DNA of 32,000 nt, from positions 2,040,001 through 2,072,000 of the forward strand of contig NC_017448.1 of the NCBI RefSeq assembly GCF_000146505.1, read 5' to 3'. The notes under the pieces are model-generated. The model searched no databases. It was not told the DNA's origin and saw nothing but the letters and a program-made list of their open reading frames with translations. A program made the translations under genes and the position numbers. This DNA comes from Fibrobacter succinogenes subsp. succinogenes S85 (GTDB lineage Bacteria; Fibrobacterota; Fibrobacteria; Fibrobacterales; Fibrobacteraceae). Shown piece by piece: positions 18,866-25,139 of this stretch; position 1 is the stretch's first letter, and each line of letters opens with the position of its first letter.

Positions 18866-20065
18866 CTATAATTTTTTGGATTTCTTCTTTTTTGGGGGAC
18901 ATATTCTCCAAATGAGCGTATCTATTCCGGCAAGATCTTTCACATAATTTGAATTTTGTCTTACAACAGAGCGCAACCTCCTTGCCAAATCAATATACTT
19001 TTGACCTTCTGTTCCCCCACGATCTAAGGACCACTCATTCTTTTTTATCCACGTTTTTACAGGATCGTTTAAAACAGGGTATTTCTTCGGGAAGAACTGG
19101 CACAACATTTCGGATAACCAAGCTTTTCTCGCGGGATTTTTCCTTTTGGCTAATAGGTCAATTTTCTTCGCCACCAATTCATCTAAATCCAGAAGACTCA
19201 TTTTCTTTTCATTTTCAATGATATCTATCAAAGCCGTAGTTGCTTCTCGCCAATTAATATTCTTTGTGCAGATTCTTTCAACACCACTTCCTTGAAAACG
19301 GAAGCAGTCTTCTTCCTCCCATCTTCTATGCCATAATTGAGTAAATTCAGTCCAAAAAGCAGCGTTACTCATCGATCCGGTTGCATTTGATCTTAATAAA
19401 TGAAGAATTTTTGCCTTTTTTTCTTTGAAAAGTTCTTGTTTGTATTCTCGTTCATTCAGGAGATCTTTAAAGTCCTTTTCCCAGGGTAATTTAATATTCA
19501 AATCAATTTGATCTAATGTAATTTCACCTTTAACTCTTTTTCCACCTATTTTGCTCTCTTCATATCTTGCAATCCAACTCTTAGAAATAGGATCCGATAA
19601 TTTGATACAACCATTAAACCACTGCACTATCCTTTCGTATTCTTCCTGTTTTATACTACTAAAACTATTTATCTCATAATTTTCAGACAACGCTGCACTC
19701 GTCATATTAGAAGAACCGATTAAGGCAAAACATTCCTTTCGTTCTTTCCAAATTAATACCTTGGGATGAAACGTATTCTCGTTCGACGGGAAAGCAAACA
19801 CATTTCCGCGCAAATTTCTTGGAAGCCAATCCAACAGAGACTGACAAGCCGCCTTTCTCGTCAGGCCAAAATTTGTTCCCACCAGAGCAACGAATTTCTT
19901 GCAATCCTTCTTTGGCTTTTGAGAAAAAGACCAGTCTGTCAAAAAAGCTGTGGCGATGTAGATTTCCTCAGCTCGTTTAAAAGCTCTATTGTATAGAGCT
20001 TTTAGATTTTCGTTATCTTTGGGATTGAGAAGTACTTTCATAATGAACAACTTCCTGTTATGCAC
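18866..20065 (-). CDS. PLD-superfamily (single HKD) nuclease-like protein with an uncharacterised C-terminal domain
   Basis: 399 aa. The HKD region is FHPKVLIWKERKECFALIGSSNMTSAAL (HxK...GSxN). An alternative ATG at 20041 (MKVLLNPKD) would remove the 8-nt overlap with the upstream gene. Confidence 0.7.
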   Translation of the reverse strand: MHNRKLFIMKVLLNPKDNENLKALYNRAFKRAEEIYIATAFLTDWSFSQKPKKDCKKFVALVGTNFGLTRKAACQSLLDWLPRNLRGNVFAFPSNENTFHPKVLIWKERKECFALIGSSNMTSAALSENYEINSFSSIKQEEYERIVQWFNGCIKLSDPISKSWIARYEESKIGGKRVKGEITLDQIDLNIKLPWEKDFKDLLNEREYKQELFKEKKAKILHLLRSNATGSMSNAAFWTEFTQLWHRRWEEEDCFRFQGSGVERICTKNINWREATTALIDIIENEKKMSLLDLDELVAKKIDLLAKRKNPARKAWLSEMLCQFFPKKYPVLNDPVKTWIKKNEWSLDRGGTEGQKYIDLARRLRSVVRQNSNYVKDLAGIDTLIWRICPPKKKKSKKL

Positions 20066-20522
20066 CAGAGCTATGATTTCTTTTTTCTTCGCGAGCTTTT
20101 AGCCATGCATTTACACCCATTTTCAATACTATAAATAATAAAATTCCAATAACAGGTCCTATAAAAACAGATGCCGTACCAACAATTCCTGCAATAGCTT
20201 CTGATATTTTAGCGACAACAGCATACTGAATTATATTAGTATCCGCCAGCAATGTTGTTATTTCGTTCTTATATTTGTCATCTCCTCGCAAAAGTAATTC
20301 TAATTCATCCAGAATTCTTTCTAAAGTAGGTGTCTGTGGAGCCTCAGATCCAAAAGGAGCAGTGCTATTATTTGTTACACAAAGCCATTCTCTAGCAACT
20401 TTTTCGTAGTCGCCTAAATTAGCATACATTGTTGTTATCATGGACTGCTGATATTTTGGTATAGTTTGAAGCCAGGAATCTGTACCATACTGTTCTAATA
20501 GAGCAATAAATTGTTCATTCAT
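20058..20522 (-). CDS. Small protein (154 aa) with a C-terminal hydrophobic, probably membrane-inserting, segment
   Basis: The soluble N-terminal roughly 100 aa are followed by AIAGIVGTASVFIGPVIGILLFIVLKMGVNAWL and a basic tail KAREEKRNH. Its start shares one base with the protease stop (TAATG). Confidence 0.6.
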   Translation of the reverse strand: MNEQFIALLEQYGTDSWLQTIPKYQQSMITTMYANLGDYEKVAREWLCVTNNSTAPFGSEAPQTPTLERILDELELLLRGDDKYKNEITTLLADTNIIQYAVVAKISEAIAGIVGTASVFIGPVIGILLFIVLKMGVNAWLKAREEKRNHSSGA

Positions 20523-24800: not shown

Positions 24801-25139
24801 AATCGCCTTCTGGTTCAGCTGGTTGCGCAACTTCAATTCAAATTCACTACCGAACAGTGAACGCTCGCGAGAAGACTGCTCTTCGTTGAGTGCTTGTTCT
24901 CGTGCGTTACGGGAGATGTCAAATTCTCTACTTTCTTTTGAAACCTGCTTCTTGACAAAAGTCCTTGAAGTAAAAATAAACCGCAAGGAATCAATCTTCC
25001 AAAGCTCATCCTTTAAAGTCTCGAACGCATAAAGCGAAAAACTAGCCGCAGCAATCGAAAGTTTTGAACCAGGAATAACAACTTTACGAAGGTCATCCAC
25101 GACCTTCTCCGTCATATTATTAAAAAACTTCTGTTCCAT
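21837..25139 (-). CDS. SNF2-family DEAD/DEAH helicase (1100 aa) with an N-terminal extension of about 250 aa
   Basis: Motif I [18 protein letters not shown], motif II [13 protein letters not shown], motif III [15 protein letters not shown], motifs V-VI [41 protein letters not shown]. Confidence 0.9.
   Translation of the reverse strand: [1100 protein letters not shown]

Follow-up and report, generated by a model that had tools for sequence, protein, structure and literature searches.

Does a chain of overlapping, defence-related genes encode one machine, or several that have come to share an operon? The question is raised by five minus-strand genes at positions 18866–25139 of a 32,000-nucleotide (nt) stretch of the Fibrobacter succinogenes subsp. 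succinogenes S85 genome (NC_017448.1, 2,040,001–2,072,000; hereafter the window, to which coordinates refer unless another locus is named). They encode an SNF2-family ATPase, a DUF4391 protein, a trypsin-like serine protease, a small membrane protein and an HKD/PLD nuclease, and a preliminary description had taken them for one undescribed or effector-swapped five-gene system. That proposal is contradicted by the presence of Type III Mod and Res genes downstream, by the match of the protease and membrane protein to a catalogued candidate cassette, PDC-M35, and by the independence of the modules. The block is very probably a chimeric operon, in which two scaffold genes are followed by two independent cargo modules within a nested defence island. 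The scaffold is a four-gene Type III-like system composed of SNF2, DUF4391, Mod and Res, and in Fibrobacter its DUF4391–Mod and Mod–Res gaps are hypervariable slots.

All five open reading frames (ORFs) are present on the minus strand (Table 1). Their coordinates and their Pfam and PADLOC matches bear out the domain assignments of the preliminary description (SNF2, DUF4391, trypsin-like, small membrane protein, PLD), and the tight gene spacing bears out the operon-like packing it proposed; the defence context also holds, the whole window being a defence island. Three of the four overlaps that had been reported can be read in the sequence: ATGA at 21837–21840 between SNF2 and DUF4391, TAATG at 21169 between DUF4391 and the protease, and TAATG at 20522 between the protease and the small protein. 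The fourth, of 8 nt at 20058–20065, is a product of choosing the longest ORF with a GTG start. We place the PLD start at the ATG at 20041, because homologues are 380–400 amino acids (aa) long and begin MKVLLNP or MQVLLNP, and because DNA homology with another Fibrobacter locus, L027, runs from 20042; this start has an AGGAAG ribosome-binding site 9 nt before it and leaves a 16-nt gap after the small-protein gene. The reported drop in GC at the DUF4391 stop proved sharper than estimated, with values of 47.7% for SNF2, 44.8% for DUF4391, 35.6% for the protease (not about 42%), 35.1% for the small protein and 36.8% for PLD. GC at third codon positions (GC3) is 0.59, 0.63, 0.25, 0.21 and 0.36 in the same order, and the composition break falls exactly at the DUF4391 stop.

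The absence of a methyltransferase, which the preliminary description had stressed, is true only inside 18866–25139. On the same strand, 4.5 kb beyond the block, there is a Type III Mod gene, and Res lies further along; relative to DUF4391 the distances are 6.8 kb for Mod and 18 kb for Res, the Mod–Res gap measures 9.8 kb, and the four-gene scaffold spans at least 25 kb of the window. A reading as a methylase-less system fails because both genes are downstream on the same strand and are orthologous to scaffold genes elsewhere. Mod is orthologous to the gene directly 3′ of DUF4391 in four loci (L029, L030, L122 and L123), and Res is 46–61% identical to the Res found 3′ of Mod in L029 and L121–L123. 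The C-terminal part of Res runs past the window start; its E. coli orthologue carries PF19778 (RE_endonuc). The middle of Mod, at ~13181–13705, is not conserved among Fibrobacter loci and both ends are 89–97% identical, a pattern that looks like allele swapping of a target-recognition domain. The expectation that an SNF2–DUF4391 pair should sit beside an Eco57I-like methyltransferase was correct as to a methyltransferase partner and wrong as to its type, the partner being a Type III Mod (PF01555).

The scaffold occurs well beyond Fibrobacter. In fixed order and without a break, SNF2, DUF4391, Mod and Res follow one another on E. coli plasmid pLAO18 and on a Methylotuvimicrobium plasmid. RefSeq names the members of the E. 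coli cluster helicase-related protein, DUF4391, site-specific DNA-methyltransferase and type III restriction-modification system endonuclease, and the cluster so annotated is found in 10 of 5426 genomes, mostly plasmid-borne. A Bacteroidales metagenome-assembled genome (MAG), L029, carries all four genes, 34–61% identical to the window proteins; a Clostridiales MAG, L030, has SNF2, DUF4391 and Mod side by side on a locus that stops short of any Res. Compared with orthologues from other phyla, the window proteins show 45–59% (SNF2), 27–34% (DUF4391), 39–54% (Mod) and 46–61% (Res) identity, whereas SNF2 is 94–96% identical across Fibrobacter loci. In every locus compared, the DUF4391 gene is directly 3′ of the SNF2 gene.

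The SNF2 protein matches Pfam SNF2-rel_dom, Helicase_C and ResIII and the PADLOC family C3a139, 'HKD+Snf2' (E 8.5e-118). Its N-terminal PLD-like domain aligns with true HKD nucleases, but in the proteins of the window, L029 and L030 the HKD motif positions are occupied by H-V-K, N-V-(gap) and Y-I-E, GSxN is absent and Pfam reports no PLD domain; the domain is probably degenerate and not a nuclease. An active HKD–SNF2 nuclease-helicase was rejected as an identity for this protein, the HxK/GSxN positions not being conserved in those three sequences. Pfam searches at E up to 10 gave no meaningful match for the N-terminal 242 aa or the C-terminal 214 aa. The DUF4391 protein matches PF14335 (E 3e-40) and no PADLOC family. 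It consists of an N-terminal alpha/beta region and a C-terminal coiled coil, with near-invariant K16, W42, K45, E61 and W123. Its AlphaFold2 (AF2) model, built from a shallow alignment (85–97% identity), was unusable (pLDDT 51), and comparison with PDB sequences, as a single sequence or as a 64-sequence profile, returned coiled-coil noise only. Homologues with 83–97% identity are abundant in Fibrobacter assemblies, the family comprises 964 clusters at 50% identity, and literature searches on DUF4391, PF14335 and PDC-M35 returned no functional study. From what is known of their families, Mod would mark host DNA and Res would translocate and cut unmarked DNA, as in Type III restriction–modification (R-M), with SNF2 and DUF4391 as a putative accessory translocase module.

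To define the slots, we compared ~10 non-redundant Fibrobacter loci whose SNF2 is 94–96% identical to that of the window. Among these near-identical scaffolds the DUF4391–Mod gap holds at least nine cargo sets, one of them a KwaA-like gene with PLD (Table 1). The second slot, between Mod and Res, differs in content in L011, L015 and L017 too. Slot GC is 0.29–0.38 in all loci, versus ~0.47 for core genes, and the cargo matches defence families in every case where identification succeeded; slot proteins that stayed unannotated are the 905-aa protein of the window (7244–9961) and proteins of 336, 231, 338, 367 and 309 aa in L015, L022 and L028. L122 and L123 have an uninterrupted core; in the window, and in those Fibrobacter loci whose sequence extends to Mod, cargo separates Mod from DUF4391. 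The Raoultella plasmid p3045-3 (L121, 3782–16625) has a WYL-domain regulator gene 5′ of SNF2 and, separating DUF4391 from Mod, a gene for an ATP-binding protein of 900 aa. Proteobacteria, too, therefore show embedding at this slot. Upstream of the scaffold, homology between Fibrobacter loci and the window mostly ends ~90 nt 5′ of the SNF2 start (window ~25224–25234), and the flanks vary (VWA/GDSL lipase, LysR/MetE, acetyltransferase, Na/H antiporter). The whole scaffold thus sits in differing chromosomal contexts and may itself be mobile; no tRNA or integrase was found in the window.

The first cargo module is the protease and small-protein pair, which corresponds to the phage-defence candidate PDC-M35 of PADLOC-DB v2. 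The protease matches PDC-M35A (PDLC04593, E 5.3e-89) over residues 5–215, against positions 3–216 of a 216-position profile, and Pfam Trypsin_2 (E 1e-9), and H41, D86 and S163 are invariant in 18 homologues. The small protein matches PDC-M35B (PDLC04594, E 3e-45). Its hydropathy peaks near the C-terminus, at residues ~97–142, after a soluble head of 95 residues. Pfam, searched to E 10, gave nothing meaningful for it beyond a trace of Phage_holin_2_1 (E 0.12) on the hydrophobic tail. The two genes are same-strand neighbours that overlap by 1 nt, and both families are matched full length. Payne et al. (2024, bioRxiv 10.1101/2024.01.29.577857, supplement file 8) define PDC-M35 as a cassette of two families, found embedded in loci of Type I R-M, BREX or DISARM, and list it as a predicted candidate only. 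Family knowledge suggests a protease-controlled abortive-infection pair, in which the protease would control or activate a membrane-inserting partner and so cause membrane damage.

The pair also stands outside any such host. Homologues of PDC-M35A with 59–78% identity (L002–L010) occur with a 151-aa partner in unrelated neighbourhoods, and in one NCBI genome (L006) the pair stands alone between opposite-strand genes. A metagenome scan yielded 80 further PDC-M35A loci (44–77% identity), and PDC-M35B adjoins PDC-M35A in 73 of the 74 that were long enough to check. The preliminary description had made its case depend on recurrence of the protease, membrane protein and PLD with SNF2 and DUF4391 in other genomes. 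Neither SNF2 nor DUF4391 was found near the pair in the 46 metagenomic loci with at least 1.5 kb of upstream sequence, and no PLD homologue in the 42 with at least 2 kb downstream. Free-standing cassettes share DNA homology with the window only over 21186–20077, and the nearest of them carry their own ribosome-binding site, AAAAGGAG, the same octamer as at the DUF4391 end. The only second instance of the five-gene order is L001, a Fibrobacter locus from another sample; its 92% nucleotide identity makes it one lineage with the locus in the window, though its left flank differs. Window and L001 are 98.6% and 96.8% identical in PDC-M35A and PDC-M35B and 95.3% and 91.9% in SNF2 and DUF4391, which hints that their cargo was acquired in common more recently than the core.

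The PLD gene forms the second cargo module. Its product matches Pfam PLDc_2 and RE_NgoFVII, the motif FHPK...GSSN is intact, and H92, K94, G109, S110, S111 and N112 are invariant in 55 homologues. An AF2 model (pLDDT 88) comprises a Nuc/NgoAVII/SauUSI-like nuclease domain (residues 1–165) and an all-helical domain (190–385). Foldseek matched SauUSI, NucT, NgoAVII and BfiI through the N-terminal domain only; the C-terminal 239 aa gave no Pfam match at E up to 10 and the helical domain no structural match. The family comprises 78 clusters, and PLD occurs without PDC-M35 in L027, downstream of different genes, in six Terriglobales loci (L031–L036), alone and convergent with a small methyltransferase gene, and in a Fibrobacter prophage region (L037–L040), where a 52%-identical paralogue lies beside phage structural genes. 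DNA homology between L027 and the window is limited to PLD and the spacer (20042–18769). No cognate methyltransferase gene adjoins PLD in the window or L027. Since a neighbouring methylase is missing, dependence on modification, or some other restraint, is more likely than classical Type II activity. By family resemblance the protein would be an HKD DNA nuclease that acts as a dimer and is guided by the helical domain at its C-terminus.

Two neighbourhoods of PLD relatives deserve separate mention. In L027 (10645–12700), genes for a KwaA-like protein (PADLOC KwaA E 8e-14), a 93-aa protein and the PLD nuclease are chained by overlaps, and this trio may represent a Kiwa-like variant in which PLD is the effector instead of KwaB. 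Beside the prophage paralogue in L037–L040 lies a two-gene system without DUF4391, consisting of a PLDc_2–SNF2 protein (1142 aa) and an MmeI/Eco57I-like methyltransferase; this may be the Eco57I-like pairing to which the preliminary description referred.

Homology between Fibrobacter loci ends at ...TTGGAAAAGGAG, which encodes L-E-K-E near the DUF4391 C-terminus, and the last 2–4 codons vary; the homology stop shared across loci reads ...GGAAAAGGAG. In nine of the 11 junctions compared, those of the window and L001 among them, the first cargo gene begins directly at the stop of DUF4391 or overlaps it. Most of the unrelated cargo types share this start/stop coupling, so that it belongs to the slot and is no argument for a five-gene machine. 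The last DUF4391 codons (E-K-E) encode AAGGAG, which resembles a ribosome-binding site and would serve the first cargo gene as such; the cargo would thereby borrow the scaffold's expression yet act on its own. The octamer AAAAGGAG suggests that cassettes could have joined the end of DUF4391 via microhomology.

At the other end of the block lies the ancestral DUF4391–Mod spacer. In L017 its first 103 nt directly follow DUF4391 and its last 71 nt just precede Mod, and in L025 and L028 the spacer is upstream of Mod. In the window, PLD is followed by a terminator-like hairpin (18706–18752; −22.5 kcal/mol, z −7.8) with a U-run behind it, and no terminator-like site was found on the minus strand from the start of SNF2 to the PLD gene. 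Judging from these signals, the five genes would be read as a single transcript, from a promoter 5′ of SNF2 to the hairpin, with Mod transcribed separately. The AT-rich hairpin element of the spacer (window 18677–18759) also occurs 5′ of SNF2 at 5579–5661 of L023 and 5341–5423 of L028, and may be a dispersed terminator or repeat element.

Some observations weigh against the interpretation as a chimeric operon. The five-gene order persists in L001, which would also fit a functional link. Both Fibrobacter loci with PLD in the slot, the window and L027, have a membrane-protein gene upstream of it, and a partnership between PLD and such a protein is conceivable. A sigma-70 promoter scan performed at chance (28 matches versus 30.8 expected) and was not used, and that the genes share one transcript and that AAGGAG works as a ribosome-binding site are both predictions, as are the roles of PDC-M35, the PLD family and the SNF2–DUF4391 pair.

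These observations must be set against the alternatives they might favour. If the five genes formed one integrated new system, SNF2 and DUF4391 would sense or translocate on foreign DNA and drive the protease, membrane protein and nuclease in the place of a methylase. The tight start/stop coupling, the repetition of the order in L001 and the lack of a terminator-like site between the genes are compatible with this. Mod and Res nevertheless exist downstream, the core is cargo-free in other phyla, complete and unrelated known systems occupy the same junction in sister strains, GC3 breaks at the DUF4391 stop, and PDC-M35 lacks SNF2/DUF4391 or PLD in all other loci checked (0 of 46 and 0 of 42, L001 excepted). 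We regard such a system as extremely unlikely. It is only a little less improbable, and still very unlikely, that protease, membrane protein and PLD make up one cassette, PDC-M35 with an added nuclease effector. Relative to the empty site of the L017 type they do form one block between ...TTGGAAAA and ATTATAG-TTTTTTCAAC, the gap before PLD is only 16 nt, and a membrane-protein gene precedes PLD in L027 too. Against this stand the PDC-M35 loci with adequate downstream sequence, none of 42 with a PLD homologue, the occurrence of PLD with its spacer but without PDC-M35 in L027, the GC3 of PDC-M35 (0.21–0.25) versus that of PLD (0.36), and the ribosome-binding site that PLD has for itself.

A different possibility keeps the cargo modules separate and gives them a joint function: they would have been recruited as back-up effectors of the scaffold, acting for instance once the Type III/SNF2 machinery is shut down by an anti-restriction protein of a phage. 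Such a role has been proposed for nucleases embedded in BREX and related systems (Rakesh and Krishnan 2026), and nucleases and abortive-infection modules are embedded recurrently in RM-like systems and have been read as back-up (PMC12839542). Co-transcription of the cargo with SNF2 and DUF4391 is probable, and slot cargo belongs to defence families wherever it can be identified. The same cassettes are, however, free-standing in unrelated contexts, no sequence feature ties the cargo to core proteins, and its fast turnover speaks against a specific partnership; we consider layered defence of this kind unlikely. The chimeric operon of scaffold and independent cargo remains our preferred interpretation: the evidence gives no sign of a specific partnership between cargo and core, and is compatible with co-regulation. 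A broader model is possible but doubtful, and we put it forward tentatively. SNF2, DUF4391, Type III Mod and Res would be an uncharacterised four-gene Type III derivative ranging from Proteobacteria plasmids to Fibrobacter, and in Fibrobacter an integron-like, integrase-free platform, on which promoterless defence cassettes are captured at the DUF4391 stop codon by microhomology between their own AAAAGGAG ribosome-binding site and the E-K-E codons, expressed from the core promoter and stacked beside a core gene.

From the window start towards SNF2 the island lies on one strand, apart from an HTH gene on the plus strand. GC3 is host-like (0.58–0.65) in Mod, PDC-S01, SNF2 and DUF4391; the SIR2 (0.23), UG10 and 905-aa genes are AT-rich (0.22–0.24), and GmrSD is intermediate (0.46). 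Direct repeats of 98 nt (17210–17307 and 14319–14416) bracket the SIR2 gene and look like the scar of a cassette insertion via homologous recombination. In the Mod–Res slot, the DRT UG10 protein carries an AEP-primase (TOTE) domain, and the gene for the 905-aa protein (29% GC) begins 8 nt after it. This protein had no Pfam, PADLOC or NCBIfam match and may be an unrecognised UG10 partner.

Table 1. Features of the window and cargo of related loci (the E values are those of PADLOC and Pfam matches)
Locus	Feature	Coordinates	Strand	Remarks
Window	Type III Res	2–2716	−	Scaffold gene 4, helicase-like ATPase; PADLOC REase_III E 9e-258; Pfam ResIII E 1.3e-14
Window	Second cargo slot	2960–12482		Between Mod and Res
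Window	DUF3990/PDC-M13-like gene	2960–3439	−	Mod–Res slot
Window	GmrSD	3756–5981	−	Mod–Res slot
Window	HTH gene	6644–7294	+	Mod–Res slot
Window	905-aa protein	7244–9961	−	Mod–Res slot
Window	DRT UG10 reverse transcriptase	9969–12482	−	Mod–Res slot
Window	Type III Mod	12486–14405	−	Scaffold gene 3; PADLOC MTase_III E 1.6e-233; Pfam N6_N4_Mtase PF01555 E 8.6e-34
Window	SIR2-domain protein	14452–17148	−	Cargo, 898 aa; Pfam SIR2_2 E 1.8e-24; PADLOC Dsr2/ThsA-like matches
Window	Mod 5′-end duplicate	17210–17307	−	Ribosome-binding site and 29 codons; 97% identity over 98 nt with 14319–14416
Window	PDC-S01 (AAA_14 + DUF4143 ATPase)	17324–18646	−	Cargo; PADLOC E 9e-179; same slot in L015, L016, L024
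Window	Ancestral DUF4391–Mod spacer	18701–18876	−	Matches L017, L025, L028
Window	HKD/PLD nuclease	18866–20041	−	Cargo module 2, stand-alone; 391 aa
Window	PDC-M35B	20058–20522	−	Cargo module 1, gene B; 154 aa; C-terminal membrane hairpin
Window	Cytoplasmic trypsin-like serine protease PDC-M35A	20522–21169	−	Cargo module 1, gene A
Window	DUF4391 protein	21169–21840	−	Scaffold gene 2; 223 aa
Window	SNF2-family ATPase	21837–25139	−	Scaffold gene 1; 1100 aa
Window, L001	DUF4391–Mod cargo			PDC-M35 and PLD
L011–L013, L023	DUF4391–Mod cargo			PDC-S31-like gene and Lamassu (LmuA, MC3, LmuB); the L023 contig shows only the start of the first gene
L015, L016, L024	DUF4391–Mod cargo			PLD-like gene, three unknown genes, PDC-S01
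L017–L021	DUF4391–Mod cargo			Three small genes
L022	Cargo 3′ of DUF4391			367-aa gene without annotation; contig ends before Mod
L025	DUF4391–Mod cargo			AbiL
L026	DUF4391–Mod cargo			SIR2 protein
L027	DUF4391–Mod cargo			KwaA-like membrane protein, 93-aa gene, PLD gene 72% identical to that of the window
L028	DUF4391–Mod cargo			309-aa gene, PDC-S06, PDC-S01-like gene

Taken together, these results remove a false lead: there is no new five-gene system here, and tight operon packing can mislead in defence islands. They add a new host scaffold to those in which defence cassettes are embedded, one whose insertion point is known to the exact nucleotide and which carries at least nine sets of cargo in near-identical strains, and they flag SNF2 and DUF4391 as a conserved pair with a putative accessory role in Type III R-M. 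The locus offers a handy natural system for cassette exchange and expression, and for guilt-by-embedding discovery in rumen and gut Fibrobacter. Its novelty is modest, and consists of a host scaffold without a functional study in the searchable literature, a precise insertion point and rapid cargo turnover.

How does this locus compare with known systems? DISARM class 1 (DrmD SNF2 with DrmMI and DrmA/B/C) likewise brings an SNF2 helicase, a methylase and a PLD nuclease into one neighbourhood, but the PLD of the window is mobile cargo and not DrmC. We rejected DISARM, as the preliminary description had: no DrmA or DrmB/DUF1998 was found among the window proteins scanned, and the NCBIfam DrmD match reached 157 bits against a cut-off of 610. 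The supporting argument that a methylase is lacking falls away, the Type III Mod being present. Hma and other DUF499-centred, BREX-related systems were also rejected, the HmaA match being limited to the helicase C-terminal region (E 7e-22) and no DUF499 gene appearing among the scanned window proteins, as was the bacterial gasdermin–protease pair, whose defining components are absent. With the HKD nucleases of the NgoFVII/BfiI/SauUSI type, the window PLD shares the N-terminal single-HKD fold and motif; its C-terminus differs in being all-helical and unmatched, and is neither a B3-like DNA-binding domain nor a helicase. The protease and membrane-protein pair shows no structural difference from PDC-M35, which is itself a prediction.

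The scaffold resembles Type III R-M of the EcoP15I kind in having a Mod with a variable target-recognition region and a Res with ResIII helicase motifs, and differs in that an SNF2 ATPase and DUF4391 precede Mod and that Mod and Res are 9.8 kb apart with cargo between them. The block as a whole most closely resembles the embedded defence cassettes known from BREX, DISARM, Type I R-M and Hma (Payne et al. 2024, bioRxiv 10.1101/2024.01.29.577857; for the insertion hotspot of Hma, Liu et al. 2024, PMC11232893). As in those cases, same-strand cassettes lie between the genes of an RM-like host and the cargo is diverse among close relatives; in the window and related slots it includes known systems together with embedding-derived PADLOC candidates (PDC-M35, PDC-S01, PDC-S06 and an HEC-06-like GmrSD). 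Here, in contrast, the host is SNF2 and DUF4391 with Type III Mod and Res, and the main insertion point is the DUF4391 stop codon, which couples the start of the cargo to a core gene.

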